Shown piece by piece: positions 4,553 to 26,885 of a stretch of DNA of 64,000 nucleotides (within the stretch, counting starts at the first letter, position 1; each line of letters begins with the position of its first letter). Origin of the DNA: Halarcobacter sp. (GTDB taxonomy: Bacteria; Campylobacterota; Campylobacteria; Campylobacterales; Arcobacteraceae); NCBI GenBank assembly GCA_048571215.1, contig CP182352.1:3168001-3232000 (forward strand), given 5' to 3'. The notes beneath the pieces are model-generated. The model saw nothing but the letters and a program-made list of their open reading frames with translations, did no database searches and had not been told where the DNA came from. The position numbers and the translations under genes are program-made.

Positions 4553-6475
4553 TTATTTATTTTTTGTAAAAGTTAGATTATTTAAAAAATCTTGTTCATT
4601 TATTAGGTTTAATATCCTTTTTTTTGAACTAATCTTTTCAACATATTGTTGCATAAAAATATATATATTAATAATCAATTTTTTTCCAAAAGGTAAAGAT
4701 AAAATTTTTCCTAGGTGTGGATGGATAAAAGAAGGCATATATTTTTGTAAAAGTTCATCTTCGACACTTAAAAAAGTTTTTACACTCCCTTTTTGACCTT
4801 GTCTTCCTGCTCGTCCAAATAGTTGTAAATCAACTCTTCTTGACTCATTTCTTTCAGTTACAATTACATGGAGCCCACCTAAGGAGTTACTATTATTTAA
4901 TAAGATTATATCTGTACCTCTACCTGCCATATTTGTAGCAATAGTTATGCTACCTTCTTCGCCTGCTTTTTCTATGATTTGAGCTTCTATTTCATGATTT
5001 AATGCATGTAAAACTGTACAGCTTAAACCTAAATTTTTAATTTTTCTTTCTAAAAGGTTTGCTTCTAAAATTGTTCTTGCTCCCACTAAAATTGGTCTTT
5101 TAAATGAGTGAATATATTCTATTTCTTTTGCAACTAAATCCCATTTTTCTTTTTTTGTAAAGGTGATTTCATCTTTATATATTTGAATTTGCTTTGAAAC
5201 TCTTAATGGGATTTTTACTATTGTTAAGTAATAAATCTGCCATAACTCTTTTTCAATATTTTGTAATGTACCACTCATTCCACAAATTCTTTTGTACAAT
5301 CTAAAAAACCTTTGAAAACTCATTTTGATATTTGTTTTTGTAGGTTTTGTAAGTGGAATTCCCTCTTTTGCTTCTACAGCTTGATGTAAACCACCACTCC
5401 AAGAACGACTATTCATAAGTCTTCCTGTTTTTTCATCAACTATTACAATTTTATCATCAACTATTACATACTGCTTGTTTAAATGGTAAAACTCTTTTGC
5501 TAAGATGGCTTGTTTCATAATATATTTTAATCTATAATCAACTCTCCAGGCTAAAGGGAAACTCTCTTTATATTTTTTTATTAAGTCAAATCCTGATTCA
5601 TTTATCTCCACACTATTGTATATTTTATTTATTTCATAATGTTCATTTATCTCTAATCTATCTAAAACTTTTTTTGCTTCTATAGAAGCATCTAAAAGCT
5701 CTTTATCTTCTGTTTGTATTGATATAATAAGAGGAGTTATAGCTTCATCAGCTAATACACTATCAGCTTCGTCAATGATAACTGTGTGTAAGGGTCTTAA
5801 TGTTCTTTGTACAGCTTTATCTTGTAGTTCGTACAATAATTCTTTAGAAGAGCCAAATTCATAATCTACTTTCATCTTATCTCTTAGGTAATCAGCTAAT
5901 ATATCATTGCTTGTTGCATATACTACATCTTTTTGGTAATGTAAAACTCTTTGTTCGTTTTCCATATCATTAGTGATATATCCAACCTCTACAAAGCACC
6001 TATTGTATAAAGGAGCTAGTAGTTGAGCATCTCTTGATGCTAAGTAATCATTTGAGGTTATTATATGGCAAGGTTCTCCCCTCCATGATAAAGCAATTGT
6101 AGCTATACATGCAGTGATTGTTTTACCTTCTCCTGTTGCCATCTCTATTATGTATCCATTATACATAGCAAGAGCACCCATTATTTGTACAGGGTAGGGT
6201 CTTTTTTGTATTTCTCTAAAGGAGGTCTCACTTATTAGGGCAAATGTTAATTTTAACTCCTCAAAGTTATCTTTTCTTAATAAAAATTTATCTTTTTGGT
6301 TTCTTAATTTTGATTCTAACTCTTCATCACTAACATCTTTAAATGTTAAAGATAGTGAATATATCTCTTGGGCCTGCTTTTTTATTTTTTTATAATTAAA
6401 AAATTTTCTTCTAAAAAAGCCTTTTATATTGTGAATGAATGAATCAGCATCTTTATATAATTTATTATTTTCCAT
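4553..6475 (-). CDS. secA: Short accessory SecA-like ATPase (640 aa)
   Basis: EMATGEGKT (Walker A), IIDEADSVL, GLHQAVEAKE, ATNMAGRGTDI, ESRRVDLQLFGRAGRQG. The protein ends shortly after the second motor domain, so the wing and C-terminal zinc-binding regions of housekeeping SecA are absent. Confidence 0.9.
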   Translation of the reverse strand: MENNKLYKDADSFIHNIKGFFRRKFFNYKKIKKQAQEIYSLSLTFKDVSDEELESKLRNQKDKFLLRKDNFEELKLTFALISETSFREIQKRPYPVQIMGALAMYNGYIIEMATGEGKTITACIATIALSWRGEPCHIITSNDYLASRDAQLLAPLYNRCFVEVGYITNDMENEQRVLHYQKDVVYATSNDILADYLRDKMKVDYEFGSSKELLYELQDKAVQRTLRPLHTVIIDEADSVLADEAITPLIISIQTEDKELLDASIEAKKVLDRLEINEHYEINKIYNSVEINESGFDLIKKYKESFPLAWRVDYRLKYIMKQAILAKEFYHLNKQYVIVDDKIVIVDEKTGRLMNSRSWSGGLHQAVEAKEGIPLTKPTKTNIKMSFQRFFRLYKRICGMSGTLQNIEKELWQIYYLTIVKIPLRVSKQIQIYKDEITFTKKEKWDLVAKEIEYIHSFKRPILVGARTILEANLLERKIKNLGLSCTVLHALNHEIEAQIIEKAGEEGSITIATNMAGRGTDIILLNNSNSLGGLHVIVTERNESRRVDLQLFGRAGRQGQKGSVKTFLSVEDELLQKYMPSFIHPHLGKILSLPFGKKLIINIYIFMQQYVEKISSKKRILNLINEQDFLNNLTFTKNK

Positions 6476-8628
6476 TACAATTGATATCTTTTTTGTAATA
6501 ATTGTCTAACAAATTTAACAGTTTGCGCAAATATGGTTTTTGGAGTTGTTTCTATTCTTAAGACTCCTGACCTATCTTCATATAATAGAGGATTCTTTTT
6601 ATCTCTTTTTATTTTTGCAATAACTTTAAAAAATGATTCTTTTGACTTTGTTCCTTTTTCATCATTTTCTAATATAGGAATATCTCCTCCTCCTCTAAAT
6701 CCTAGAACAGCAGAAGGAAGAGTATTTTGCTCATGGGGAATAACAGTTAAGTTTTCAACACTTATAGTTTTTGCTGCAATTCCTGTAAGTTTTATTTCAG
6801 ATGTAAAAAGCTCTGAGTTAAAAAGTTCAGATGCTTTTTCTTGAGGTACTGCTGCAATAAATTGTGCATTGTCATTATCAATAATTTTCCCGATATATTC
6901 TCTTCTTTTAATAATCCTATTTTTTAGTTTTTCAATATTATTACTAACAAATAAACCATCTTTTGGGGCTTTTATTATTAGGTTTTCTTTTTTCTCTTTT
7001 AAAAATTTTAATTTTTCGTCAAGCAATACTAATCTTTTTTCTATTGGTTTTAGATTGGCTATATTTTCTTGAGATGCTTTTAGTCTTAAAGCTTTTGTTT
7101 CAATTATCATAGCCCTTGTTCGCTCTAAGTCAAAATTTAGTGATTCGTTTTCTAGTTTTAGAATCAAGTCCCCTTTTTTAACTTTTTTAACATTATCTAT
7201 GTATATTTCAGTAACTAAACCATCACTAAAAGAGTATATATTAAGTAAACTAATTGGTTGTACTATTCCACTTGCTCTTATAGAATCTTTTATTGGTATA
7301 AACCCAATTAAAATTATTAAACTCAATGTAAAAAGTAAAGAGATTGTTACTGCATTAAATCTTTTTCCTCTCAATTCATTATCATGCAGTAGATACTTTA
7401 TAAAAGAATAAAGGGGCTTTATTATCCATATAAAAATTGATATTGATATAACAATTAGACCAAATAAAAACCATTGATCTGCAACAAATATAGCAATTAA
7501 AATCGCAACCATAAATTTATATATTAAACTTAAAATAGCATATAATGCTAGCCAAAAACTCTCTTTTTTGGAGTTAGTTGGGGGATATATATCTTTTAAT
7601 TTAAACAAATATTTTTTAACCCAAAAGAAACATTGTTCTCTTGCTCTTTGATAAAGATTTGGTATTTCTAATAAATCAGATAATATATAATAAGAATCGA
7701 ATTTCAATAGGGGATTACCATTAAAAACTAAACTTGAGACGGAACCTATAATCATTATATTAAATGCTATTGAATTTAAAGCACCTTCTCCTGTATTTAC
7801 CCAGATGATTACACAAATAAAAGCTATAAAAAGCTCAACCATCATCCCAGCAGCACCAACTAATGCTCTTTTATATTTATTTGTAAAAGCCCAGCTACTA
7901 CTTGCATCCATAAAGGGTAGGGGAGTAAATACTATAAACATAAGACCCACTGTTGTTACATTGCCTCCAAACTTTTTGACCATCATTACATGGCCTAATT
8001 CATGAAATACTTTTAATATCACTAAAGAAATATATAAAAATACGATATTATCAGCTGCAAGTACCCCTTGGGTTTGGTCAAAAAAACTATCAAAATTTTC
8101 TGCAATCAATTTTAAAGCATATATGAAAAAAACAAGCCAAATAAGTAAAAGAGTTTTACTGAAAAAAACATCAATAAATGGTTTAATTCTTATTAGCCAA
8201 TCATTAGGATTCCATAAAGGGATTTTAATAAATAAAAAACTAGCTAGTTTACCTCTAATCTCTTTATTTTTATTTTTAACAATTCTGTCAAACATATTTT
8301 CACTATCTGCTCTATGTTTAAAATATAAAAGGTTATTGCCATGTAGTTGAGATAATAAGTTTACTATTTCATCTTGTGTAGGAGCGATGTCAGGATTTGT
8401 TTTAATATATTCCTCCCATATATCTTCAACTGTTTTTTTTGTAGTTAATTTTGATAAAAACTTATAAGCTTCGGGAGTAACTTTAAAGAATTTATTACTG
8501 TACTTATCATTTAAAACATACCATGTCGTTCCTCTATAATATTGCTTATGTATGTTTATACTATAAAGTAAAGATACTTTTAATTCAGAGACAACATGCC
8601 ATGATTCACTATAAAGAGTTTCCTTCAT
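6475..8628 (-). CDS. Site-2 (M50) membrane metallopeptidase fused to an N-terminal PqqD/RRE-like domain and a C-terminal HlyD-like adaptor
   Basis: FHELGH (nt 7990-8004), NGNPLLKFDSY, several hydrophobic helices, and a C-terminal lipoyl-like/coiled-coil part (VKKGDLILKLEN...IKAPKDG). TAATG stop/start overlap with the secA-like gene. Confidence 0.8.
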   Translation of the reverse strand: MKETLYSESWHVVSELKVSLLYSINIHKQYYRGTTWYVLNDKYSNKFFKVTPEAYKFLSKLTTKKTVEDIWEEYIKTNPDIAPTQDEIVNLLSQLHGNNLLYFKHRADSENMFDRIVKNKNKEIRGKLASFLFIKIPLWNPNDWLIRIKPFIDVFFSKTLLLIWLVFFIYALKLIAENFDSFFDQTQGVLAADNIVFLYISLVILKVFHELGHVMMVKKFGGNVTTVGLMFIVFTPLPFMDASSSWAFTNKYKRALVGAAGMMVELFIAFICVIIWVNTGEGALNSIAFNIMIIGSVSSLVFNGNPLLKFDSYYILSDLLEIPNLYQRAREQCFFWVKKYLFKLKDIYPPTNSKKESFWLALYAILSLIYKFMVAILIAIFVADQWFLFGLIVISISIFIWIIKPLYSFIKYLLHDNELRGKRFNAVTISLLFTLSLIILIGFIPIKDSIRASGIVQPISLLNIYSFSDGLVTEIYIDNVKKVKKGDLILKLENESLNFDLERTRAMIIETKALRLKASQENIANLKPIEKRLVLLDEKLKFLKEKKENLIIKAPKDGLFVSNNIEKLKNRIIKRREYIGKIIDNDNAQFIAAVPQEKASELFNSELFTSEIKLTGIAAKTISVENLTVIPHEQNTLPSAVLGFRGGGDIPILENDEKGTKSKESFFKVIAKIKRDKKNPLLYEDRSGVLRIETTPKTIFAQTVKFVRQLLQKRYQL

Positions 8629-8631
8629 ATA

Positions 8632-10515
8632 CTACAACCAAAAATACATTCTAAGAAAATCAATTGTTTTATGGGTAGCTATCCAAATAACCCTTCTTTG
8701 TCCTATATTTATTTTAGCTACACCACTCATCCCTGGTCTCCACCAAGACTCAATAGGAGATAATGTTTTTGCTTTTAACATAAATACATTTCCATTTTTA
8801 CCATCTACTTGTGCAGTTGGAACAATATTTGTAACTTTTATAGGGAAATATAACTCTGGTCTACTTAATAGTTTTAGTTCACCCTCATCATTTATCTTAA
8901 TTTCATCAATATATTTTTCACTGATTTTAAATCTAATAAAGATATCTTTTGCATTTGCAATTTTAAGTAAAATATCTCCTTTTGAAACAGGTGCAGAAAT
9001 TAACTCTTTTTTATCACCTTCAATAATAACTCCATCAAATGGTGATTTTATTTTTGATTGATTTAAATAGTATTCAACTTTTTTTAAAGATGCTTTAGCT
9101 TGAATAACCTTTGCTATTGCTATATTCATATCTGCTAACTCATCTCTTGCTCTTGCTTTTTCTGCCTCTCTTGTATATCTAATTACATCTGCTTCCATTT
9201 CAAGTTGTTTTAATAATAACTCTTCTTCATCTAATTCAATTAAAGTTTCATCTTTTTTTATATAATCACCAGGATAATAATTAACATTTTTTATATAACT
9301 ATCATATGGAGCTTGTACATAGGCTATGTTATCAGTATCTAAAGTAGCAGTTACTTCTATCTTATATTCCCATTTGAAAAATATAGAATAAAGTAATACT
9401 AAAGAGATAAGAATACTAAAAAACTTCAATAATGTGTTATCGCTTCCTAAGAAATTTGCTAATTGTTTTTTTGTCCCATCTAATAGTTTTTTCCCAATCC
9501 ATCTATCTTCTTGTTGTAAATCATATAACCAAATATTTAATTGTTCTAAAGACAATTCTAGTAGAATAATATCTTTTTTATCAAAACTATCATCTAATTT
9601 TTCAAGGGTAACTACACCTATAACTTTATCTTCAATTTTTATAGGTATAGATAAAATAGTATTTAAAAGATTTATACGAGAGTAGTCCTCATGGGCTTTT
9701 GTTACTAAATTCGTATTATCAGTAGGTAAGTAGACAGTTTTTTCTTGATCTGCACACTCTTCATATACATTTTGTAATTTTTTAACTATTTCACTTTTCT
9801 CGTCAAATTTTTCTAAGTGGGATATAGCAATTAAGTTTATGTATTCATTTGTTTTCCAACCAATACTCACCCTAGAACTGTCAAATTTTAATGAAAGTTC
9901 ATTTACTAGCTTCATACATGCTAAGAGAAATTTCTTTTCATCTTTTATTAAGTTTAGTAATTCTAGTATCTCATAAATTCTATTATTTAATAAAGGGGTT
10001 TTCTCTTGAGTTTCTATGGGTAAATTTGTAGTTGATGACTTTCTATTAAAATATGCATAGTTTAAATAAACATCATTTATAAGTTGAGTTCTAACTACAG
10101 TTTCATTAAACTGCTGTGTATTTGCTCTGTCAATTATTATTGATGCGATAATAATTGTATTATCTAAATTTTCGATTTTAAAAGACAAGATGTATGCTTG
10201 TGAAAATTTATTTATTTTCAAATTAATAGGGGCATAAGAATATGAGTTTTTTAATGTTTTATCTCTATTCAATAAGATGGTTTTTGCAATCTCTTCAGAA
10301 CTATCATCTACTCCAATATTATCAATCAAATACTTTTGTTTATAATTCTCTTCAAATAGTTCTAAAACTAAGATATAAGAAGATTTAGTAACTTGTAATG
10401 TATTTTCTAAATAGAAATTCCAAAACTCTTCTTTTGTGCCCTCAAATTCTCTTAATGCTTTTATATTATTTAATACAACTAATACATCTGTACTATTAGA
10501 TACAATATTACTCAT
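8632..10515 (-). CDS. GAF-domain-containing HlyD-family periplasmic adaptor
   Basis: GAF-like segment (ILSIPIKIEDKVIGVVTLE), one TM helix (FFSILISLVLLYSIFF), then an adaptor (VQAPYDSYI...IKSPFDGVI...WRPGMSGVAKI). Confidence 0.8.
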   Translation of the reverse strand: MSNIVSNSTDVLVVLNNIKALREFEGTKEEFWNFYLENTLQVTKSSYILVLELFEENYKQKYLIDNIGVDDSSEEIAKTILLNRDKTLKNSYSYAPINLKINKFSQAYILSFKIENLDNTIIIASIIIDRANTQQFNETVVRTQLINDVYLNYAYFNRKSSTTNLPIETQEKTPLLNNRIYEILELLNLIKDEKKFLLACMKLVNELSLKFDSSRVSIGWKTNEYINLIAISHLEKFDEKSEIVKKLQNVYEECADQEKTVYLPTDNTNLVTKAHEDYSRINLLNTILSIPIKIEDKVIGVVTLEKLDDSFDKKDIILLELSLEQLNIWLYDLQQEDRWIGKKLLDGTKKQLANFLGSDNTLLKFFSILISLVLLYSIFFKWEYKIEVTATLDTDNIAYVQAPYDSYIKNVNYYPGDYIKKDETLIELDEEELLLKQLEMEADVIRYTREAEKARARDELADMNIAIAKVIQAKASLKKVEYYLNQSKIKSPFDGVIIEGDKKELISAPVSKGDILLKIANAKDIFIRFKISEKYIDEIKINDEGELKLLSRPELYFPIKVTNIVPTAQVDGKNGNVFMLKAKTLSPIESWWRPGMSGVAKINIGQRRVIWIATHKTIDFLRMYFWL

Positions 10516-14596: not shown

Positions 14597-14606
14597 AATC
14601 TTTTCC

Positions 14607-17600
14607 TTATAACGCGATATCTTCAATCCAATATTCAAATAACTCACTGTCAATTCTGTCTATAATTAAATTCTCATTAAAATTACTTGTATAGTTTGAA
14701 TAATTCAATGATATTGGATTTAATACATCAGTAATTGATGTTTGTACTGTTTGAGTATTTACAACATTACTTGTATGATTTACATATGTTGGATTATTTA
14801 TTGATTCAAACAATGAGGTTACTCTTGTTTGGATATTCTCTTGTGCTTGCACATGATGTGTTTTCATTACATATGACGAGTTTAATAACTCATAATCTAT
14901 CTCTTTTGCGAAACTCCATTGCTCTACAGCACTATAACTATTAGTTAGATCCATAGTTGTTTCTATTTGACTTAACTTAGGAGTTACTATTGTTTTATTT
15001 ACAACTTGTAAAGAATAGTTGTCTTTTTCTACTAAAAATACAGATGTTGAAGAACCTATTTTTGAGTCTATTTTAGCTTCTTGTTTATTTGCAATAAATA
15101 AATTTCTTACATCTGTATTTATTGCATTATTTGACAAGTTATTTAAGCTTGTACTATTTAATAGATACTCACCTTTTGTGAAGGCACCTTTACCTACCAT
15201 ATTTAAATTTTGAGCTGTTATATTCGTATTTTGATTATTATAATAATCAGTGATTCTACCATCTTGTGTTTTTAAAGTTACTGTATTCGCACTAATAGTA
15301 CCTATTTTCATACTATCTTGAGTTTGTATAGTTACATTACTTGATGTTTGTACATCTTCTACTACTAAGTAATCCAATTCATTAATACTTACATCACCAC
15401 TAGCAATTGCTTTTAATACTGCTATATCTGTATCTAACGAAGCTGTAGTTACATCTAAGCTTAGTTTATCAGCAACTAATGTGGTATTATTAGTAATATT
15501 ATTTGCACTAATTGTTACATTCCCATCAGTTGTCATACTATCTAGAATTAAATCATCACTTTCATTAATAGTTACATCACCACTTGCAGTTGCTGTTAAA
15601 GTAGATACTTTTGTATTAATATCTGCACTTGTTACATCTAAACTTAATAAACTACTTGACAATAAAGAAGTAGCTGTATTTGTTAGATTAGAAGCTGTTA
15701 TATCTACATTTCCTGATGTTGTAATACTATCTAGAATTAAATCATCACTTTCATTAATAGTTACATCACCACTTGCAGTTGCTGTTAAAGTAGATACTTT
15801 TGTATTAATATCTGCACTTGTTACATCTAAACTTAATAAACTACTTGACAATAAAGAAGTAGCTGTATTTGTTAGATTAGAAGCTGTTATATCTACATTT
15901 CCTGATGTTGTAATACTATCTAGAATTAAATCATCACTTTCATTAATAGTTACATCACCACTTGCAGTTGCTGTTAAAGTAGATACTTTTGTATTAATAT
16001 CTGCACTTGTTACATCTAAACTTAATAAACTACTTGACAATAAAGAAGTAGCTGTATTTGTTAGATTAGAAGCTGTTATATCTACATTTCCTGATGTTGT
16101 AATACTATCTAGAATTAAATCATCACTTTCATTAATAGTTACATCACCACTTGCAGTTGCTGTTAAAGTAGATACTTTTGTATTAATATCTGCACTTGTT
16201 ACATCTAAACTTAATAAACTACTTGACAATAAAGAAGTAGCTGTATTTGTTAGATTAGAAGCTGTTATATCTACATTTCCTGATGTTGTAATACTATCTA
16301 GAATTAAATCATCACTTTCATTAATAGTTACATCACCACTTGCAGTTGCTGTTAAAGTAGATACTTTTGTATTAATATCTGCACTTGTTACATCTAAACT
16401 TAATAAACTACTTGACAATAAAGAAGTAGCTGTATTTGTTAGATTAGAAGCTGTTATATCTACATTTCCTGATGTTGTAATACTATCTAGAATTAAATCA
16501 TCACTTTCATTAATAGTTACATCACCACTTGCAGTTGCTGTTAAAGTAGATACTTTTGTATTAATATCTGCACTTGTTACATCTAAACTTAATAAACTAC
16601 TTGACAATAAAGAAGTAGCTGTATTTGTTAGATTAGAAGCTGTTATATCTACATTTCCTGATGTTGTAATACTATCTAGAATTAAATCATCACTTTCATT
16701 AATAGTTACATCACCACTTGCAGTTGCTGTTAAAGTAGATACTTTTGTATTAATATCTGCACTTGTTACATCTAAACTTAATAAACTACTTGACAATAAA
16801 GAAGTAGCTGTATTTGTTAGATTAGAAGCTGTTATATCTACATTTCCTGATGTTGTAATACTATCTAGAATTAAATCATCACTTTCATTAATAGTTACAT
16901 CACCACTTGCAGTTGCTGTTAAAGTAGATACTTTTGTATTAATATCTGCACTTGTTACATCTAAACTTAATAAACTACTTGACAATAAAGAAGTAGCTGT
17001 ATTTGTTAGATTAGAAGCTGTTATATCTACATTTCCTGATGTTGTAATACTATCTAGAATTAAATCATCACTTTCATTAATAGTTACATCACCACTTGCA
17101 GTTGCTGTTAAAGTAGATACTTTTGTATTAATATCTGCACTTGTTACATCTAAACTTAATAAACTACTTGACAATAAAGAAGTAGCTGTATTTGTTAGAT
17201 TAGAAGCTGTTATATCTACATTTCCTGATGTTGTAATACTATCTAGAATTAAATCATCACTTTCATTAATAGTTACATCACCACTTGCAGTTGCTGTTAA
17301 AGTAGATACTTTTGTATTAATATCTGCACTTGTTACATCTAAACTTAATAAACTACTTGACAATAAAGAAGTAGCTGTATTTGTTAGATTAGAAGCTGTT
17401 ATATCTACATTTCCTGATGTTGTAATACTATCTAGAATTAAATCATCACTTTCTTGAATAAATATATCACCACTTGTTGTATTTGAAGCAGTAAGTGATG
17501 CTATTGTTGTATCTATATCTGCATCCCCATTTGCTCCTATACCTGTTGCTGCAACTAAACTAACTACTGTTGTAGTTCCTTTTATATTTGCATCTTCTGT

Positions 17601-20600
17601 ATCTAGGTTATCACTAATATTTCCATTTGTTGCTGTTATATTTACATTTGAGCTTGTATCTATTACTGATAGTGCTACATTTGTATTTGCTGTATATGTT
17701 ACAACTCCACTTGTACTTGTTGTATTTTTACCACTATTCATGATAATTGAACCAGCACTTGATACTACATCTATATTTCCAGCTACAGAACTAATAGCTC
17801 CATCTTGTGTGATATCTCCTAGGCTTGATACAATATTTACTACACCTAAGTTTGAACTTTGTGTTATTGCATCTATTGTTAAAGTATCTGTTTCTTTAAC
17901 ATATATATCTCCACTTGTTGCATTTGTGATATCTATATTTGATACTGTTGTATTAATATCATCTACACTTGTTCCAACCCCTGTATTAGAGTTTATTGTT
18001 AATACATCTGCTATTACATTTGCTGTTTCTGCACTTAGGTTATCACTAATATTTCCATTTGTTGCTGTTATATTTACATTTGAGCTTGTATCTATTACTG
18101 ATAGTGCTACATTTGTATTTGCTGTATATGTTACAACTCCATTTGTACTTGTTGTATTTTTACCACTATTCATGATAATTGAACCAGCACTTGATACTAC
18201 ATCTATATTTCCAGCTACAGAACTAATAGCTCCATCTTGTGTGATATCTCCTAGAGTTGATACAATATTTACTACACCTAAGTTTGAACTTTGTGTTATT
18301 GCATCTATTGTTAAAGTATCTGTTTCTTTAACATATATATCTCCACTTGTTGCATTTGTGATATCTATATTTGATACTGTTGTATTAATATCATCTACAC
18401 TTGTTCCAACCCCTGTATTAGAGTTTATTGTTAATACATCTGCTATTACATTTGCTGTTTCTGCACTTAGGTTATCACTAATATTTCCATTTGTTGCTGT
18501 TATATTTACATTTGAGCTTGTATCTATTACTGATAGTGCTACATTTGTATTTGCTGTATATGTTACAACTCCATTTGTACTTGTTGTATTTTTACCACTA
18601 TTCATGATAATTGAACCAGCACTTGATACTACATCTATATTTCCAGCTACAGAACTAATAGCTCCATCTTGTGTGATATCTCCTAGAGTTGATACAATAT
18701 TTACTACACCTAAGTTTGAACTTTGTGTTATTGCATCTATTGTTAAAGTATCTGTTTCTTTAACATATATATCTCCACTTGTTGCATTTGTGATATCTAT
18801 ATTTGATACTGTTGTATTAATATCATCTACACTTGTTCCAACCCCTGTATTAGAGTTTATTGTTAATACATCTGCTATTACATTTGCTGTTTCTGCACTT
18901 AGGTTATCACTAATATTTCCATTTGTTGCTGTTATATTTACATTTGAGCTTGTATCTATTACTGATAGTGCTACATTTGTATTTGCTGTATATGTTACAA
19001 CTCCATTTGTACTTGTTGTATTTTTACCACTATTCATGATAATTGAACCAGCACTTGATACTACATCTATATTTCCAGCTACAGAACTAATAGCTCCATC
19101 TTGTGTGATATCTCCTAGAGTTGATACAATATTTACTACACCTAAGTTTGAACTTTGTGTTATTGCATCTATTGTTAAAGTATCTGTTTCTTTAACATAT
19201 ATATCTCCACTTGTTGCATTTGTGATATCTATATTTGATACTGTTGTATTAATATCATCTACACTTGTTCCAACCCCTGTATTAGAGTTTATTGTTAATA
19301 CATCTGCTATTACATTTGCTGTTTCTGCACTTAGGTTATCACTAATATTTCCATTTGTTGCTGTTATATTTACATTTGAGCTTGTATCTATTACTGATAG
19401 TGCTACATTTGTATTTGCTGTATATGTTACAACTCCATTTGTACTTGTTGTATTTTTACCACTATTCATGATAATTGAACCAGCACTTGATACTACATCT
19501 ATATTTCCAGCTACAGAACTAATAGCTCCATCTTGTGTGATATCTCCTAGAGTTGATACAATATTTACTACACCTAAGTTTGAACTTTGTGTTATTGCAT
19601 CTATTGTTAAAGTATCTGTTTCTTTAACATATATATCTCCACTTGTTGCATTTGTGATATCTATATTTGATACTGTTGTATTAAGGTTATTTGCTTGTGT
19701 TCCTATACCGTTTGTTGCATCTAATATTAGCTTATCAGAAATAATACTTACACTATTATCTGCTCTATCTAAAATAGAACCATTTGCAATTAATGAAACT
19801 GTTCCTGTTGAGTTTATACTATCTTGTGCATCATCTGTTCTTGCTGTTGTTAATCCATTTGTTCCAACTTTATTAACACTTATTGCTTCAACATTATCTA
19901 TTAAGATATCTTTACTATTATCTAAATATAAACCATTTTTATTTACAACAGCACTTAATACATTTATAGAAGTTTCAATATTTTGTGTATTTGCTCCTAC
20001 TACTCCTGCTCCACTTAAATAAACTCTTAATTTATTTGCTGTTATATCTGTATTTGTATCACCTGAGTCACTAAATACTCCTGTTAGGAATAATGAAACA
20101 TTTGCAGTTCCTGCGTTTAATGATGAGATAGAGAAATCTTTTGCTTTTACTCTAATATTTGAATCACTTGTACTTACTTGTGAAGCATCACTCATAATCA
20201 CATTTCCTGCTGTACTAAAAATATCTATAGTTTTATTTGCAGTTTGAGTAGTTACATTGTCATTTATATTTATATTAGCACTTGCATCTAAAGTGATATT
20301 CCCACCGGTACTTAGTATTTGTGCATTTGAAGTGATATTAGTAGCAGATTTTACAAGAATATTTCCACTAGCTTCTATATTTCCTGTTATATCTAAGGTT
20401 GTTATTACACCACTTGCTTGTAATACTAAATTACCTAATGATGAAAGTTTTGTTTGTAGGGCATCTATTGTATTACTTGTAGATGCATCTGTACCTATTG
20501 TAGTAACAGTTATAGCTGATGTTTGACCTATATTTACAGCATTTGCTTCTTTAACAAATACATCTCCAGAAACATTCGCACTTAAAGTTGCAAGATCTGT

Positions 20601-23600
20601 TTTTAAATTACTTGCATTTGTACCTAAGGTGCTTGCAGTTATTTTTAATTCATCTGCTTTTACATTATTAAATGGTGCAGTTGATATTAAATTATTTGTA
20701 ATAGTTGTTGCAAGTAAACTAACATCACTAGTAGTTACAATTTGTCCTAAGCTTAATGTTGTTGTTGAAGCATATCTTACATTTGCAGCTGTTGCATCTG
20801 TTTTTGAAGTACTTGCCATTGATATAGCATTTGCTTGTACATCCACTGTTCCTACGGTTGTGATATTCGCATTTTGCGCAAATGTCCCACCTGTGATTAT
20901 TGATAAAGCACCTGATGTTGAACTTAAGGCACTACTTAATGTTATATTATCTGCTTTTAATAGTGTATCGCCATTTGAAGAAACTGTAGCATTAGAAGTT
21001 ACATCTATATCTCCACTTGCACTTACTAAAATTAATTTATCTGTTGATACTAAATTCTCTTGGGCACTATTTGCTGTAGCTGTTATACTTCCATCACTAT
21101 TCACCCCATTTACATCTACACTTACAGAGTCTATTGATAAACCATCACTTTCACTTACAAACAATCCAGCACCTTTAGCACTTAAAGTTGTAACTGTTGT
21201 CTCTATGTGATTTGTTGCTGTTCCTATAAAACCTGTTATATCTAACAATAAGCTTGATGCTTGAATATCCACATCACTATTTGTTGTATCTATTGCATCT
21301 GTATCTACTAAATTACCAAGTGCTGTAATTGATACACTTCCTGTTCCTGCATTGATACTCTCAATATTTACATCATTTCCTGCATCTAATAAAATATTTC
21401 CACTATTTGTTGTAGCTATTTGTGTACCATCTGCCATTGTAATATCATTTAATGCTATTACTTGAATTGTTTTTGTTGCAGTTGATGCTATGATATTTGC
21501 ATTTACTAATACATCATTATCTGAAACTATTGAAATGTTTCCATTATTTGAAGTTACTATTCCATTTAATGTTATATCAAAGGCTTCATCATTAGCTACA
21601 TCTTCTGTTGTTAATAGAATATTATTATTTGCTGTTATTGTTCCTGCTGTTATTGCTCCATTTATTGTTGAAACTACTGCATTACCTGTTGTTCCTAAAG
21701 CACTAAGTGAAGTTATACTTAAATCATCACTTTCTTGAATAAATATATCACCACTTGTTGTATTTGAAGCAGTAAGTGATGCTATTGTTGTATCTATATC
21801 TGCATCCCCACTTGCTCCTATACCTGTTGCTGCAACTAAACTAACTACTGTTGTAGTTCCTTTTATATTTGCATCTTCTGTATCTAGGTTATCACTAATA
21901 TTTCCATTTGTTGCTGTTATATTTACATTTGAGCTTGTATCTATTACTGATAGTGCTACATTTGTATTTGCTGTATATGTTACAACTCCACTTGTACTTG
22001 TTGTATTTTTACCACTATTCATGATAATTGAACCAGCACTTGATACTACATCTATATTTCCAGCTACAGAACTAATAGCTCCATCTTGTGTGATATCTCC
22101 TAGGCTTGATACAATATTTACTACACCTAAGTTTGAACTTTGTGTTATTGCATCTATTGTTAAAGTATCTGTTTCTTTAACATATATATCTCCACTTGTT
22201 GCATTTGTGATATCTATATTTGATACTGTTGTATTAATATCATCTACACTTGTTCCAACCCCTGTATTAGAGTTTATTGTTAATACATCTGCTATTACAT
22301 TTGCTGTTTCTGCACTTAGGTTATCACTTATATATCCATTTGTTGCACTTAAGTTTACATTTGCTGTTGTTGAAACCAACGATAGTTTTATATTATTAGC
22401 TGCATTTAGGGTTATATCATCTTGAGCTATTATGTTTTTACCATCAGTTATAGTAATAGAACCTGTTGTTGAAGTTATTGCTACTTCCCCACTTGAAGAT
22501 ATATTACTTTGAAGTGCATCTTCTGTATTTGTAGTACTTGCATCTGTATTTATTGTTGTAACACTTATTGCTGATGTTTCATTTATAGTAAGATTACCTG
22601 CTTGTGTTATAAATAAACTTCCACCATTTGAGCTTAATGTTGAAATATCTGTTTCAATGTAATCTAAAGTAGTTGCTGTTGAACCACTAACAGTTAATTT
22701 TAATTCATCTGCTGTGATATTATTTGTATTAGCATTTGCATCACTAATTGAACTTGCAAGTAAACTAACATCACTAGTAGTTACAATTTGTCCTAAGCTT
22801 AATGTTGTTGTTGAAGCATATCTTACATTTGCAGCTGTTGCATCTGTTTTTGAAGTACTTGCCATTGATATAGCATTTGCTTGTACATCCACTGTTCCTA
22901 CGGTTGTGATATTCGCATTTTGCGCAAATGTCCCACCTGTGATTATTGATAAAGCACCTGATGTTGAACTTAAGGCACTACTTAATGTTATATTATCTGC
23001 TTTTAATAGTGTATCGCCATTTGAAGAAACTGTAGCATTAGAAGTTACATCTATATCTCCACTTGCACTTACTAAAATTAATTTATCTGTTGATACTAAA
23101 TTCTCTTGGGCACTATTTGCTGTAGCTGTTATACTTCCATCACTATTCACCCCATTTACATCTACACTTACAGAGTCTATTGATAAACCATCACTTTCAC
23201 TTACAAACAATCCAGCACCTTTAGCACTTAAAGTTGTAACTGTTGTCTCTATGTGATTTGTTGCTGTTCCTATAAAACCTGTTATATCTAACAATAAGCT
23301 TGATGCTTGAATATCCACATCACTATTTGTTGTATCTATTGCATCTGTATCTACTAAATTACCAAGTGCTGTAATTGATACACTTCCTGTTCCTGCATTG
23401 ATACTCTCAATATTTACATCATTTCCTGCATCTAATAAAATATTTCCACTATTTGTTGTAGCTATTTGTGTACCATCTGCCATTGTAATATCATTTAATG
23501 CTATTACTTGAATTGTTTTTGTTGCAGTTGATGCTATGATATTTGCATTTACTAATACATCATTATCTGAAACTATTGAAATGTTTCCATTATTTGAAGT

Positions 23601-26600
23601 TACTATTCCATTTAATGTTATATCAAAGGCTTCATCATTAGCTACATCTTCTGTTGTTAATAGAATATTATTATTTGCTGTTATTGTTCCTGCTGTTATT
23701 GCTCCATTTATTGTTGAAACTACTGCATTACCTGTTGTTCCTAAAGCACTAAGTGAAGTTATACTTAAATCATCACTTTCTTGAATAAATATATCACCAC
23801 TTGTTGTATTTGAAGCAGTAAGTGATGCTATTGTTGTATCTATATCTGCATCCCCACTTGCTCCTATACCTGTTGCTGCAACTAAACTAACTACTGTTGT
23901 AGTTCCTTTTATATTTGCATCTTCTGTATCTAGGTTATCACTAATATTTCCATTTGTTGCTGTTATATTTACATTTGAGCTTGTATCTATTACTGATAGT
24001 GCTACATTTGTATTTGCTGTATATGTTACAACTCCACTTGTACTTGTTGTATTTTTACCACTATTCATGATAATTGAACCAGCACTTGATACTACATCTA
24101 TATTTCCAGCTACAGAACTAATAGCTCCATCTTGTGTGATATCTCCTAGGCTTGATACAATATTTACTACACCTAAGTTTGAACTTTGTGTTATTGCATC
24201 TATTGTTAAAGTATCTGTTTCTTTAACATATATATCTCCACTTGTTGCATTTGTGATATCTATATTTGATACTGTTGTATTAATATCATCTACACTTGTT
24301 CCAACCCCTGTATTAGAGTTTATTGTTAATACATCTGCTATTACATTTGCTGTTTCTGCACTTAGGTTATCACTTATATATCCATTTGTTGCACTTAAGT
24401 TTACATTTGCTGTTGTTGAAACCAACGATAGTTTTATATTATTAGCTGCATTTAGGGTTATATCTGCACTATTAGAACTTTTTGTTAGGGTGTCATTATT
24501 CATAATGATTGAACCAGCAATTGAACTTAAAGTTATAGTTCCACTTGTTGAGTTAATATCTCCATCTTGTGTTATATCTCCTAGAGTTGCTACAACACTT
24601 ATATTACCTGCTAAGGTTTGTGTTATTGCATCTATTGTTAAAGTATCTGTTTCTTTAACATATATATCTCCACTTGTTGCATTTGTGATATCTATATTTG
24701 ATACTGTTGTATTAATATCATCTACACTTGTTCCAACCCCTGTATTAGAGTTTATTGTTAATACATCTGCTATTACATTTGCTGTTTCTGCACTTAGGTT
24801 ATCACTAATATTTCCACTTGTTGCACTTAGGTTTACATTTGCTGCTGTTGAAACTAATGATAATTTTATATTATCATTTGCAGTGTAATTTATAATACCA
24901 TTTGTAGATGAAGCACTTGTTGCATCAGCCATAACAATAGAATCATTATATGAAGTGATATTTATTGCCCCTGCTGCATATGTATGTGTTATATTTGCAT
25001 TTATATTTATATTTCCATCAGCTTTTAAATTAACATTCTCTCCCGCACTAGTAATCGTTTCATTTACATTAACTACTGTATCTATCCCTGTATCTTTTGC
25101 TTGGATAGTTAAGCTTCCACTTCCTGCATTACTAACCCCATTTTGTCCTGATGCTATTGTGATATTACCATTTTGAGTAGTTAAGCTTGTTGTTCCACCT
25201 GTTGCACTTTGAGATAATCTATTTACTACTATATCTCCTCCACTTGCTAGCTCATTTATTTTTATATTCCCTGTCCCTAAGTTTTGGGCATCTAATGTTG
25301 TAACTTTTGTAAACATTAAATCTATCCCTGTTTGTGAACTTACTGTAAGGGTATTTGAAACTAACTCTTCACTTGTTAATCCATCTGTAGAATCATTAAT
25401 TTGTGAAATCTTACCTGATTGTGAATATAAAGTTATATCACTTGACTGGGCTTCTATATAGTTTGAAATAGTTATATTATTTATTGCATCTAAAGTGATA
25501 TCTCCTGATGCTATTAATTTATTATATTCATTTGAATAATCTTCTATTTTTATACTTCCACCATATATCTCTACATTATCTTTAAACGTTAATTGATTTG
25601 ATGCTATTACACCTACTCTTACTTCTCCAACTGCTGTTGATTTTGTATGGTTATCTATATCTTTATGTCCAAATATTATTTTAGAGAAACCATCTGTTAG
25701 TGTCCCCATTTCTGTTGCTGTTATATTTAGAGTATTTGCTGTTGTTTCTAGTGGTGGTGATGAAATTGACATATCATAACTTGTATTTGTTGGTCTTAAT
25801 GTTAAGGTTCCTGCACCTGTACTTGTTATTGATTCTTCTCCACCTTTGAAGTTTATCTCATTACCTTCAATTAAAATATCTCCACCTGCAGAAACGCCAT
25901 CTTCAAACACTACTAAGTCTGCACCTATTATTGTTAGGTTTCCACTTAGTGTAAGTTGTTGATTAAAGGTTACTGTTCCTGTAGCATAAATATAAATATC
26001 TCCATCTACATTTACTTCCCCTTTAAAGGTAACATTTTCGGCACCTTCACTATTATCACTTGTATCTAAAATACTTAGACCTTCTAATTGGTCTGTGTAT
26101 CCCACTGTACTATTTACAACTATACTTCCACCATTTGCATTTAAGTTTAATGTATCTGTTGTTCCAGCATTACCATCTAATCTGTGAGTTGTTGATGCTC
26201 CTAGGGTAATATTACCTGTACCATCTGTTCCTGCTGTTATTGAGTCATTACTTGTAACTACAATTGAATCACTTATTAATACATCATCTGCCAATGATAT
26301 TGCTGTATCTGATCCACCTGATCCAAAGTTTAAGGTATGTCCTGATCCATATATACTTAATGATGTACCTTCCCCTCCTATGAGATTATCATAGATGTAC
26401 ATCTCTCCTCCTAGGTTTGGATTGTTGATTGTTAAAGATACATCAATATTTATATCTCCTTGTTCAGAAGATTTATCTCCTATCTCAATAATGCTTCCAC
26501 TATTTTCATCACCAATTACTAAACTATTAGCACTATCTTTTAGATTTTTTATTTGAGAAGAAGTAAGGTGTAGAGCATCTGATGATACACTTGTACTATC

Positions 26601-26885
26601 ACCAATTACTAATGTTTGATTTTGATTTGTTTTGATGTTTGCAGATGGTTTGTCTTGATTGTTTTCTTGAACATAAACTATATTGTTGTTTTCTTCACTT
26701 AAATAATCTACAGTAGCACCAACAATTGGATTTGCAGATAGTAGCAATCTAGATTCTAAAGGATTAATAGTAAACCTATTTTTATTAAAACTAATACTTT
26801 TTTTTAATTCTTTTGCTTTTAATTTTTTTTGTGTTAACTCTTTAATTCTTTTAAAAAATCTAAAATCGCTAAATGATTTTGACAT
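14607..26885 (-). CDS. Giant LEPR-XLL-motif repeat protein (4,092 aa), probable beta-helical adhesin or surface protein
   Basis: Uninterrupted ORF with AAGGA RBS. Basic leader, then FTINPLESRLLLSA, then T/S/N/D/I/A/G-rich repeats. Ends EYWIEDIAL. Confidence 0.85.
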   Translation of the reverse strand: MSKSFSDFRFFKRIKELTQKKLKAKELKKSISFNKNRFTINPLESRLLLSANPIVGATVDYLSEENNNIVYVQENNQDKPSANIKTNQNQTLVIGDSTSVSSDALHLTSSQIKNLKDSANSLVIGDENSGSIIEIGDKSSEQGDINIDVSLTINNPNLGGEMYIYDNLIGGEGTSLSIYGSGHTLNFGSGGSDTAISLADDVLISDSIVVTSNDSITAGTDGTGNITLGASTTHRLDGNAGTTDTLNLNANGGSIVVNSTVGYTDQLEGLSILDTSDNSEGAENVTFKGEVNVDGDIYIYATGTVTFNQQLTLSGNLTIIGADLVVFEDGVSAGGDILIEGNEINFKGGEESITSTGAGTLTLRPTNTSYDMSISSPPLETTANTLNITATEMGTLTDGFSKIIFGHKDIDNHTKSTAVGEVRVGVIASNQLTFKDNVEIYGGSIKIEDYSNEYNKLIASGDITLDAINNITISNYIEAQSSDITLYSQSGKISQINDSTDGLTSEELVSNTLTVSSQTGIDLMFTKVTTLDAQNLGTGNIKINELASGGDIVVNRLSQSATGGTTSLTTQNGNITIASGQNGVSNAGSGSLTIQAKDTGIDTVVNVNETITSAGENVNLKADGNININANITHTYAAGAINITSYNDSIVMADATSASSTNGIINYTANDNIKLSLVSTAANVNLSATSGNISDNLSAETANVIADVLTINSNTGVGTSVDDINTTVSNIDITNATSGDIYVKETDTLTIDAITQTLAGNISVVATLGDITQDGDINSTSGTITLSSIAGSIIMNNDTLTKSSNSADITLNAANNIKLSLVSTTANVNLSATNGYISDNLSAETANVIADVLTINSNTGVGTSVDDINTTVSNIDITNATSGDIYVKETDTLTIDAITQSSNLGVVNIVSSLGDITQDGAISSVAGNIDVVSSAGSIIMNSGKNTTSTSGVVTYTANTNVALSVIDTSSNVNITATNGNISDNLDTEDANIKGTTTVVSLVAATGIGASGDADIDTTIASLTASNTTSGDIFIQESDDLSITSLSALGTTGNAVVSTINGAITAGTITANNNILLTTEDVANDEAFDITLNGIVTSNNGNISIVSDNDVLVNANIIASTATKTIQVIALNDITMADGTQIATTNSGNILLDAGNDVNIESINAGTGSVSITALGNLVDTDAIDTTNSDVDIQASSLLLDITGFIGTATNHIETTVTTLSAKGAGLFVSESDGLSIDSVSVDVNGVNSDGSITATANSAQENLVSTDKLILVSASGDIDVTSNATVSSNGDTLLKADNITLSSALSSTSGALSIITGGTFAQNANITTVGTVDVQANAISMASTSKTDATAANVRYASTTTLSLGQIVTTSDVSLLASSISDANANTNNITADELKLTVSGSTATTLDYIETDISTLSSNGGSLFITQAGNLTINETSAISVTTINTDASTTNTEDALQSNISSSGEVAITSTTGSITITDGKNIIAQDDITLNAANNIKLSLVSTTANVNLSATNGYISDNLSAETANVIADVLTINSNTGVGTSVDDINTTVSNIDITNATSGDIYVKETDTLTIDAITQSSNLGVVNIVSSLGDITQDGAISSVAGNIDVVSSAGSIIMNSGKNTTSTSGVVTYTANTNVALSVIDTSSNVNITATNGNISDNLDTEDANIKGTTTVVSLVAATGIGASGDADIDTTIASLTASNTTSGDIFIQESDDLSITSLSALGTTGNAVVSTINGAITAGTITANNNILLTTEDVANDEAFDITLNGIVTSNNGNISIVSDNDVLVNANIIASTATKTIQVIALNDITMADGTQIATTNSGNILLDAGNDVNIESINAGTGSVSITALGNLVDTDAIDTTNSDVDIQASSLLLDITGFIGTATNHIETTVTTLSAKGAGLFVSESDGLSIDSVSVDVNGVNSDGSITATANSAQENLVSTDKLILVSASGDIDVTSNATVSSNGDTLLKADNITLSSALSSTSGALSIITGGTFAQNANITTVGTVDVQANAISMASTSKTDATAANVRYASTTTLSLGQIVTTSDVSLLATTITNNLISTAPFNNVKADELKITASTLGTNASNLKTDLATLSANVSGDVFVKEANAVNIGQTSAITVTTIGTDASTSNTIDALQTKLSSLGNLVLQASGVITTLDITGNIEASGNILVKSATNITSNAQILSTGGNITLDASANININDNVTTQTANKTIDIFSTAGNVIMSDASQVSTSDSNIRVKAKDFSISSLNAGTANVSLFLTGVFSDSGDTNTDITANKLRVYLSGAGVVGANTQNIETSINVLSAVVNKNGLYLDNSKDILIDNVEAISVNKVGTNGLTTARTDDAQDSINSTGTVSLIANGSILDRADNSVSIISDKLILDATNGIGTQANNLNTTVSNIDITNATSGDIYVKETDTLTIDAITQSSNLGVVNIVSTLGDITQDGAISSVAGNIDVVSSAGSIIMNSGKNTTSTNGVVTYTANTNVALSVIDTSSNVNITATNGNISDNLSAETANVIADVLTINSNTGVGTSVDDINTTVSNIDITNATSGDIYVKETDTLTIDAITQSSNLGVVNIVSTLGDITQDGAISSVAGNIDVVSSAGSIIMNSGKNTTSTNGVVTYTANTNVALSVIDTSSNVNITATNGNISDNLSAETANVIADVLTINSNTGVGTSVDDINTTVSNIDITNATSGDIYVKETDTLTIDAITQSSNLGVVNIVSTLGDITQDGAISSVAGNIDVVSSAGSIIMNSGKNTTSTNGVVTYTANTNVALSVIDTSSNVNITATNGNISDNLSAETANVIADVLTINSNTGVGTSVDDINTTVSNIDITNATSGDIYVKETDTLTIDAITQSSNLGVVNIVSTLGDITQDGAISSVAGNIDVVSSAGSIIMNSGKNTTSTNGVVTYTANTNVALSVIDTSSNVNITATNGNISDNLSAETANVIADVLTINSNTGVGTSVDDINTTVSNIDITNATSGDIYVKETDTLTIDAITQSSNLGVVNIVSSLGDITQDGAISSVAGNIDVVSSAGSIIMNSGKNTTSTSGVVTYTANTNVALSVIDTSSNVNITATNGNISDNLDTEDANIKGTTTVVSLVAATGIGANGDADIDTTIASLTASNTTSGDIFIQESDDLILDSITTSGNVDITASNLTNTATSLLSSSLLSLDVTSADINTKVSTLTATASGDVTINESDDLILDSITTSGNVDITASNLTNTATSLLSSSLLSLDVTSADINTKVSTLTATASGDVTINESDDLILDSITTSGNVDITASNLTNTATSLLSSSLLSLDVTSADINTKVSTLTATASGDVTINESDDLILDSITTSGNVDITASNLTNTATSLLSSSLLSLDVTSADINTKVSTLTATASGDVTINESDDLILDSITTSGNVDITASNLTNTATSLLSSSLLSLDVTSADINTKVSTLTATASGDVTINESDDLILDSITTSGNVDITASNLTNTATSLLSSSLLSLDVTSADINTKVSTLTATASGDVTINESDDLILDSITTSGNVDITASNLTNTATSLLSSSLLSLDVTSADINTKVSTLTATASGDVTINESDDLILDSITTSGNVDITASNLTNTATSLLSSSLLSLDVTSADINTKVSTLTATASGDVTINESDDLILDSITTSGNVDITASNLTNTATSLLSSSLLSLDVTSADINTKVSTLTATASGDVTINESDDLILDSITTSGNVDITASNLTNTATSLLSSSLLSLDVTSADINTKVSTLTATASGDVTINESDDLILDSMTTDGNVTISANNITNNTTLVADKLSLDVTTASLDTDIAVLKAIASGDVSINELDYLVVEDVQTSSNVTIQTQDSMKIGTISANTVTLKTQDGRITDYYNNQNTNITAQNLNMVGKGAFTKGEYLLNSTSLNNLSNNAINTDVRNLFIANKQEAKIDSKIGSSTSVFLVEKDNYSLQVVNKTIVTPKLSQIETTMDLTNSYSAVEQWSFAKEIDYELLNSSYVMKTHHVQAQENIQTRVTSLFESINNPTYVNHTSNVVNTQTVQTSITDVLNPISLNYSNYTSNFNENLIIDRIDSELFEYWIEDIAL
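15535..17453 (-). repeat. 189-bp (63-aa) intragenic tandem repeat, 10 full units plus a partial unit
   Basis: atactatctagaattaaatcatcactttc recurs every 189 bp from 15535 to 17425. Confidence 0.95.
17604..19684 (-). repeat. 432-bp (144-aa) intragenic tandem repeat, ~4.8 units
   Basis: atgataattgaaccagcac at 17740, 18172, 18604, 19036 and 19468. Confidence 0.9.
20708..24464 (-). repeat. Two ~1.7-kb direct copies with 2046-bp period (20708-22418 and 22754-24464)
   Basis: Matching segments offset by 2046 (21490/23536; 22021/24067). Confidence 0.9.

Follow-up and report, generated by a model that had tools for sequence, protein, structure and literature searches.

The locus described here raises the question of what a membrane protease with a predicted leader-reading domain at its N terminus does beside two genes for giant proteins. 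It was found in Halarcobacter sp. (assembly GCA_048571215.1, contig CP182352.1, positions 3,168,001 to 3,232,000), and this stretch of 64,000 nucleotides is referred to as the window; coordinates are window positions, and features of the window lie on the minus strand, unless stated otherwise. The gene in question (6475..8628) is an open reading frame (ORF) of 717 amino acids (aa). Its first 313 codons, spanning 7690-8628, had been described in an earlier note as an RRE/PqqD-like domain fused to an M50 peptidase, a description that holds at the level of predicted fold, family-level PqqD matches and invariant catalytic residues. Read over its full length, the gene encodes a fusion of an RRE domain, an M50 protease and a membrane-fusion protein (MFP), an architecture that relatives keep at about 713-733 aa. 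The results partly support the view that this protein is an M50 leader peptidase guided by an RRE, forming part of a TolC-linked module that exports giant proteins and has no ABC transporter. Predicted fold, homology and a genomic link to the LEPR-XLL tag at the N termini of both giants speak for it, and binding and cleavage of the tag are proposed on that basis.

Residues 24-103 (8320..8559) are predicted to form a winged-helix domain of the RRE/PqqD type, with strands b1-b3, helices a1-a3 and a short b4, as judged from models, fold matches, sequence and conservation. The pattern of three strands and three helices that the earlier note had read from the letters was present in both AlphaFold2 models, with strands at residues 24-31, 34-41 and 46-50, followed by helices at 52-60, 67-77 and 85-97. 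The domain modelled alone, from an alignment of 68 N-terminal domains (the window's own and those of 67 related loci), reached a mean pLDDT of 82.9, with residues 1-100 in blocks of 85-96, while the model of the whole protein (87 sequences) reached a mean pLDDT of 89.3 and a pTM of 0.76. RRE and PqqD proteins led the fold searches. In a VIA-align search of 48,161 chains, the lasso-peptide RRE proteins TfuB1 (6jx3_B, Z 9.5, 84 of 85 residues) and TbiB1 (5v1u_A, Z 9.0), whose structures were solved with leader peptides, were found first and second, and PqqD (5sxy) scored Z 8.5. Fourteen of the 21 rows at Z ≥ 5.4 were proteins of pathways for peptides synthesised ribosomally and modified post-translationally (RiPPs; 13 by title, plus TigE). 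Foldseek against the PDB gave TbiB1/TfuB1 as its top three matches for the domain model (E 6.6e-3 to 3.3e-2, probability 0.99-1.00), followed by the heterocyclases LynD and TruD, TigE and PqqD.

Sequence comparison points in the same direction. PqqD (PF05402) was the best Pfam match of the domain, over model positions 2-67 of 67 (14.8-15.2 bits, E 0.027-0.038). It was matched by 62 of the 68 aligned domains at E ≤ 1 and by 23 at E ≤ 1e-4 (best 2.5e-9), and no other family was found at E ≤ 1e-4 among the 68. When the profile of this alignment was compared with the PDB, the best two matches were PqqD (3g2b) and TfuB1 (6jx3), both end to end and with weak E values (0.15 and 1.4). As weaker evidence, the N-terminal part lay nearest in a protein atlas to a cluster in which 25% of the members carry PqqD. 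Mean column entropy was lowest in strand b3 and helix a3 (1.33 and 1.27, compared to 1.6-2.2 for the other strands and helices of the domain), the two elements by which the leader is gripped in solved RREs. We are thus highly confident in assigning residues 24-103 to the RRE/PqqD type, as far as predicted fold and family-level homology go. A PqqD search of the whole genome listed the domain (16.5 bits) after four true PqqD ORFs. These four standalone ORFs (2138348-2138548, 604582-604782, 68028-68213 and 768298-768495 elsewhere in the genome; 87-103 aa, with PF05402 scores of 45-70 bits) are possible markers of gene clusters for peptide modification.

The protease part of the protein, residues 154-444 (7297..8169), is an M50 (site-2-type) membrane protease core with about seven membrane helices and a beta-hairpin at residues 227-240, according to PF02163, NF041824, NF058609, hydropathy and the model. 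Peptidase_M50 (PF02163) was matched over aa 199-342 with 28.3 bits (cut-off 27.2). The zinc-binding and catalytic motif HELGH (aa 209-213, 7990..8004) lies at the end of membrane helix 192-219, and NGNPLLKFD follows at aa 303-311 (7696..7722). In an alignment of 87 full-length relatives from several phyla, H209, E210 and H213 as well as N303, N305, P306, L307 and D311 were invariant (87/87). D311 is presumably the third zinc ligand, in the motif NxxPxxxxD(G) of site-2 proteases. The residues that the earlier note had quoted are all in place, from W36 to L101 in the N-terminal domain, HELGH and NGNPLLKFD here, and PLESRLLLSA at aa 42-51 of the neighbouring 4,092-aa protein. Its remark that the usual DG is replaced by DS was likewise correct (S312), and since 37 of the relatives have G at this position, 36 have A, 13 have S and one has V, this is ordinary variation within the family. 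Since none of the 87 sequences, which come from several phyla, deviates at a catalytic residue, we argue that proteolysis has been under selection.

The hydropathy scan agreed with the AlphaFold2 model in giving about seven membrane helices; the RRE domain and the HExxH site would therefore be cytoplasmic, and the adaptor periplasmic. Two conserved segments flank the RRE domain. Residues 1-23 (8560..8628) contain an FSESW motif with an invariant W10 in the alignment and are packed before the RRE sheet in the model (short helix 10-13, strand 18-20), while residues 105-153 (8170..8316) connect the RRE domain to the membrane domain by way of a long linker helix with an invariant R115 (109-129), a conserved IPLWNP strand (134-139) and short helices. 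M50 family membership would also suit a site-2 protease of the classical regulatory kind, with a membrane anti-sigma factor as its substrate. Enzymes of the RseP and SpoIVFB type have PDZ or CBS domains; the Pfam scan of the protein reported neither, and that of the operon genes revealed no sigma or anti-sigma gene. Together with the fusion to an RRE and an MFP inside a secretion-type operon, this makes a regulatory role extremely improbable.

What the RRE-like domain would read can be sought in the two giant genes. The first (14607..26885) encodes a protein of 4,092 aa, which we propose as cargo 1. Its residues 1-56 (26718..26885) consist of a basic N-terminal stretch and the tag RFTINPLESRLLLSANP, the proposed ligand and substrate. 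The earlier note had pointed to this segment (LESRLLLSA) as a leader, and it corresponds to the curated LEPR-XLL signature NF012209 (20.7 bits, cut-off 17). The second giant gene, proposed cargo 2, occupies 27873..64000 and is part of a 12,405-aa frame, very large for a bacterial protein, that runs past the window; KFTINSLEDRILLSADP is found at its start, which lies about 900 nt outside. In a search of the whole genome (3.61 Mb), NF012209 scored 23.7 bits for the 4,092-aa protein and 25.3 bits for the 12,405-aa frame. Exactly two LEPR-XLL tags were detected, both at this locus, and the RRE-M50-MFP gene is single-copy. Both leaders are alike, with a basic stretch followed by (R/K)FTINxLExRxLLSA(N/D)PI. 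Among 32 leaders aligned from 20 genomes, E44 and R46 were invariant and L43, L48, L49 and S50 were at least 90% conserved. No Pfam family was found at E ≤ 0.001 in the 4,092-aa protein or in two 4,999-aa pieces of the 12,405-aa frame. A possible covariation between K49 of the RRE domain (R in 65 of 68 relatives) and an N that stands in place of E three positions ahead of LE in the tag was considered and rejected: the closest relative has both, but a Geobacteraceae genome combines K49 with the usual E. Long antisense open frames on the plus strand (472-784 aa; 15481-17457, 17740-20022, 28747-31101 and 31384-32802) inside the giant genes are probably by-products of repetitive, skewed composition rather than genes.

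The tag and the RRE-M50-MFP protein co-occur across genomes. The family of this protein is large, with 1,767 matches in a word-indexed search and 10,738 protein cluster representatives at E ≤ 1e-3 (3,906 at E ≤ 1e-30), and species genomes with a match numbered at least 599, from 600 candidate stretches of which 599 matched. Eighty related loci were kept, with flanks of at most 10 kb, many of them ended by contig ends. When the start regions of ORFs of 300 aa or more were searched, the tag motif was found in 10 of the 80, which is an undercount because the giant genes exceed the 10-kb flanks in length. Of 20 genomes with the cassette that were reached through loci, 18 contained at least one tag above the cut-off (5/5, 5/5, 5/5 and 3/5), and where contigs allow, a tagged giant gene abuts the cassette (genomes G301, G302, G305, G310, G312 and G315). 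The LEPR-XLL tag was absent from all 14 control genomes. In a sample of 300 genomes from the class of G301, one of them unscored, 13 had both features, six the RRE-M50 protein only, three the tag only and 278 neither, corresponding to an odds ratio of 201 (Fisher p 7e-16). In eight of the 13 genomes with both, the two features shared a contig at no more than 57 kb from each other, the space between them being taken up by the giant gene. Tagged proteins range in length from hundreds to over 20,000 residues, and across phyla the tag goes with the cassette. We consider it likely, on this genomic association, that LEPR-XLL proteins are the cargo of the cassette. In one gammaproteobacterial genome (G463:C30:434339-434404), the LEPR-XLL match beside the cassette lies in an open frame of 79 aa only, which may be a broken or misassembled cargo gene.

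The closest characterised relatives of the RRE-M50 unit are enzymes of daptide biosynthesis. The best NCBIfam match of the protein was NF041824, the daptide intramembrane metalloprotease, over aa 27-397 (E 3.1e-41), and the N-terminal 156 aa alone matched it with E 4.8e-4. The next NCBIfam matches include the YydH/LiaK peptide-maturation protease and HlyD-type adaptors. Daptide enzymes, as described in the available text of the respective preprint (10.1101/2023.03.08.531785), are RRE domains N-terminally fused to a site-2 protease. MpaP/DapP and the protein studied here thus share the order of an N-terminal RRE and an HExxH membrane protease and, by sequence comparison, the RRE-M50 unit is homologous to the daptide leader peptidase. 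The proposed logic, with the leader gripped by the RRE and taken off by the protease, would be the same as well. Since the score of 141.8 bits is far under the family cut-off of 300, the protein is not the daptide enzyme itself. It also differs in its additional periplasmic adaptor of 270 aa. Daptide clusters contain modification enzymes and several short precursors, whereas HlyD, GAF-HlyD, TolC, a SecA paralogue, SapC and the giants are found here (short precursor ORFs were not searched for). Daptide precursors, in the portion of the preprint consulted, are peptides of about 50 aa with ELExMEAP, in contrast to proposed substrates of thousands of residues with the LExRxLLSA tag.

This kinship raises an alternative, namely that the product matured and exported by the cassette is a small ribosomal peptide (RiPP or bacteriocin), and that the giants adjoin the cassette by coincidence or shared regulation. 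It is in line with the four standalone PqqD-family ORFs elsewhere in the genome, and RRE-M50 fusions are known, as far as the daptide preprint goes, from RiPP pathways only (10.1101/2023.03.08.531785). However, no modification-enzyme family was seen among the operon proteins in the Pfam scan, which did not extend to a search for short precursor ORFs, and the kinase-like gene downstream of the operon recurs in one of the 80 related loci only. The sub-threshold daptide score and the presence of the tag on very large proteins that track the cassette across phyla also stand against it, so that we regard this alternative as very unlikely.

The operon itself is contiguous and tightly packed on one strand, in the order TolC, HlyD, GAF-HlyD, RRE-M50-MFP gene and truncated second SecA. 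The ATG of the 717-aa ORF lies 3 nt past the stop of the GAF-HlyD gene, and its own stop overlaps the ATG of the SecA-like gene (TAATG). Family scans identified a TolC-type outer-membrane protein of 539 aa (11413-13032; in 39 of the 80 related loci), a small HlyD adaptor of 296 aa (10522-11412; 50/80), a GAF-HlyD adaptor of 627 aa (8632..10515; 72/80) and a truncated SecA paralogue of 640 aa (4553..6475; 70/80), with the same gene order recurring. The SecA paralogue comprises the DEAD motor and the preprotein cross-linking domain (PF01043, E 8.2e-23); its score of 430.8 bits compares to a SecA cut-off of 800, and the genome encodes a housekeeping SecA at another place as well. A SapC-family protein (27004..27759; PF07277, E 1.3e-71; 12/80) is encoded between both giant genes. 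No ABC, RND or MFS pump and no C39 peptidase was found among the operon proteins scanned with Pfam and NCBIfam.

The locus is a member of the 'Secondary SecA_DEAD' module described by Kamneva, Poudel and Ward in 2015 from comparative genomics (PMC4452313). The components listed in the accessible text of that work, a SecA_DEAD paralogue, Peptidase_M50/HlyD, GAF/HlyD, HlyD and sometimes an outer-membrane OEP, are all present here. The M50 protein was discussed there as a possible pore, its role being stated as unknown. That text names neither an RRE domain nor a cargo, so that the link to the tag and the proposed role as leader reader go beyond it. Literature searches, which did not cover bioRxiv supplements, found no paper that connects LEPR-XLL leaders with an RRE-M50-HlyD protein. 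The preprint on 'Giant genes' (10.1101/2023.11.21.568195) was considered in this context and set aside: as far as its available text goes, it deals with giants that contain SecA_DEAD domains themselves and not with this module.

The C-terminal third of the protein, which the earlier note did not mention, is a full periplasmic adaptor. Residues 445-717 (6478..7296) comprise a lipoyl domain, an alpha-hairpin (495-548) and a beta-barrel, anchored by membrane helix 423-442, as judged from the model and from comparison of the family profile with the PDB. In the latter, the MFPs MacA, EmrA, LipC and HlyD were matched with E values of 5.3e-10 to 1.6e-4. The model aligned to MacA (9qgy_G) with Z 16.7 over 238 residues (model residues 422-700), while the Pfam (a weak HlyD match) and NCBIfam scores of the adaptor were under the cut-offs. 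The fold search with the whole-protein model listed adaptor residues 423-701 only and is silent on the M50 core.

Several results weigh against the reading of the protein as a leader reader and peptidase for the giants. On the side of the domain, winged-helix domains that are not RREs scored close behind in VIA-align (NovN Z 8.9, Rv2067c 8.1, PKMT2 8.0), so that leader binding is not proven by fold alone, and Foldseek gave no PDB match for the domain model at E ≤ 1e-3. The PqqD profile search that the earlier note had proposed bore out its assignment through the relatives; the window's own domain scored 15.2 bits, below the Pfam cut-off of 23.4. An hhalign comparison of the domain family with the four standalone PqqD ORFs of the genome was in register, with a probability of 27.5% over 43 columns from a thin four-sequence template. 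On the side of the genomic link, the tags of three Planctomycetota genomes (5, 13 and 9) are dispersed at a great distance from the cassette, and adjacency is therefore not universal. In the class sample, six of the 19 RRE-M50-positive genomes were without a tag and three tag-positive genomes without the RRE-M50 protein; many of these are draft assemblies in which a contig ends at the gene. The Fisher p value overstates the case because related genomes are not independent, and the sample was centred on a known-positive genome, without which the counts are 12, 6, 3 and 278. The tag, finally, is short and weakly hydrophobic, unlike the membrane-helix substrates of classical site-2 proteases.

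Some of these points would suit an alternative that assigns recognition of the tag to a different part of the machine, for example SapC or the preprotein cross-linking domain of the SecA paralogue. In that case, the RRE-like domain would serve as a winged-helix module on which a partner docks, either the SecA paralogue or the cytoplasmic GAF part of the adjoining adaptor, and the protease might still trim the cargo. The SecA paralogue does retain its cross-linking domain, the non-RRE winged-helix domains nearly equal the RREs in the fold search, and co-occurrence ties the tag to the whole cassette rather than to the RRE-like domain alone. Against this stand the PqqD/RRE sequence matches across the family, the homology of the RRE-M50 unit to an enzyme class that was discovered via its RRE, and the conservation peak in b3 and a3; SapC was found in 12 of 80 related loci only. 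Another reader thus appears unlikely. Direct binding of the tag by the RRE domain is predicted, and we consider it reasonably probable.

Whether the tag is also removed bears on another alternative, in which the M50 domain is mainly an inner-membrane scaffold or pore, or a quality-control protease that clears jammed cargo, and mature giants keep their tag. A pore role for the M50 protein was proposed by Kamneva et al., in the accessible part of their text (PMC4452313). In the hydropathy scan, the other adaptors of the operon had single membrane helices each, and the operon encodes no other polytopic inner-membrane protein; the tag, as mentioned, does not resemble a membrane helix. The invariance of the catalytic residues argues instead for selected proteolysis, and the nearest curated families, NF041824 and NF058609, are peptide-maturation proteases. 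In the 32 aligned leaders, conservation ends abruptly after LLSADP, as it would at a processing site, and any cut would thus be expected shortly after LLSA(D/N)P. A mere scaffold, pore or quality-control function is therefore rated as quite improbable. Cleavage of the tag is a prediction for which we see the chances as evenly balanced.

The following sequence of events is proposed for the RRE-guided reading. The cytoplasmic RRE/PqqD-type domain of this inner-membrane protein would bind the N-terminal LEPR-XLL tag of both neighbouring giants, with the tag placed along b3 and a3 in the manner seen in RRE-leader complexes of known structure, and the M50 zinc protease would remove it by a cut shortly after LLSA(D/N)P. 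Export may begin at the N terminus of the cargo, with the SecA paralogue as the candidate motor driving the chain. The C-terminal adaptor would help to bridge to TolC, and the three adaptors and TolC would take the chain across the envelope. As a whole, we favour the mechanism in which the RRE-M50-MFP protein reads and clips the tag, with modest confidence. Tentatively, and with considerable doubt, it may be extended further: one chain would act as receptor of the signal, as signal peptidase and as periplasmic adaptor in a distinct pathway of secretion across the envelope, which an N-terminal leader guides and in which the SecA paralogue replaces the ABC transporter, megadalton cargo leaves N terminus first and possibly co-translationally, and leader recognition of the RiPP style has been recruited for secretion.

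Known exporters resemble this scheme in part. Peptidase-containing ABC transporters combine a C39 peptidase with an ABC exporter and act on peptides with double-glycine leaders. The earlier note had drawn an analogy to them, which gives a fair functional picture, as an N-terminal leader is recognised and cut in the cytoplasm by a protease built into the exporter; it does not extend to a relationship, since the operon is without a C39 or ABC domain and protease class, motor and recognition domain are all different. Type I secretion systems (HlyB-HlyD-TolC, and the LapB-C-E type for giant adhesins) share the TolC-type channel, HlyD-type adaptors and large repetitive cargo without a Sec signal peptide, and the adaptor domain found here resembles MacA, EmrA, HlyD and LipC. 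In contrast to them, there is no ABC transporter at this locus, the signal is N-terminal and not C-terminal, three different adaptors are present, one of them fused to a protease, and a SecA paralogue is found in place of the ATPase. A preprint on Chlorochromatium (10.64898/2026.03.19.712371) describes giants, Cag_663 and Cag_665, with an N-terminal LEPRxLL that are flanked by sapC and tolC and are made and delivered to the partner cell. Its authors, in the text available, proposed a Sap-like type I system for them; the words 'M50' and 'peptidase' do not occur in that text.

Further features of the window lie outside this core. Directly after the SecA-like gene, a methylthioribose-kinase-like gene of the APH-fold type (3397-4542) was detected (TIGR01767, E 6.5e-58, under the cut-off); the only related locus in which it recurs is the closest one (L006). 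A 538-aa protein with one N-terminal hydrophobic helix (13037-14653) is encoded between the TolC gene and the 4,092-aa giant; it had no Pfam or NCBIfam match, and relatives were found in three of the 80 related loci only (L006, L031 and L032). The G + C content is 0.22-0.24 in the first 4 kb of the window, compared to 0.25-0.34 over the cassette and the giant genes. In a sample of 300 other genomes of the same phylum, neither the RRE-M50 protein nor the tag was found (0/300), indicating that the locus is rare in its own phylum. Horizontal acquisition would fit both this absence of the RRE-M50 gene and the shift in G + C content. No RNA run is listed among the sequencing runs that contain the locus; the four DNA runs all stem from one study and may be those from which the assembly was built.

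RRE domains are known for reading leaders in natural-product pathways of small peptides, and here one is found on a protease-adaptor in a TolC-linked operon without the usual ABC pump. The window provides a clean, single-copy example of an RRE-M50-MFP gene beside tagged giants of 4,092 and about 12,400 residues. If the proposed reading is true, it would provide a concrete signal and receptor for the export of many giant LEPR-XLL proteins, which the Chlorochromatium preprint, in its available text, describes as lacking known transport signals (10.64898/2026.03.19.712371). It would also give a role to a module that occurs in hundreds of species, with matches to the RRE-M50-MFP protein in at least 599 species genomes and in 3,906 protein clusters at E ≤ 1e-30.

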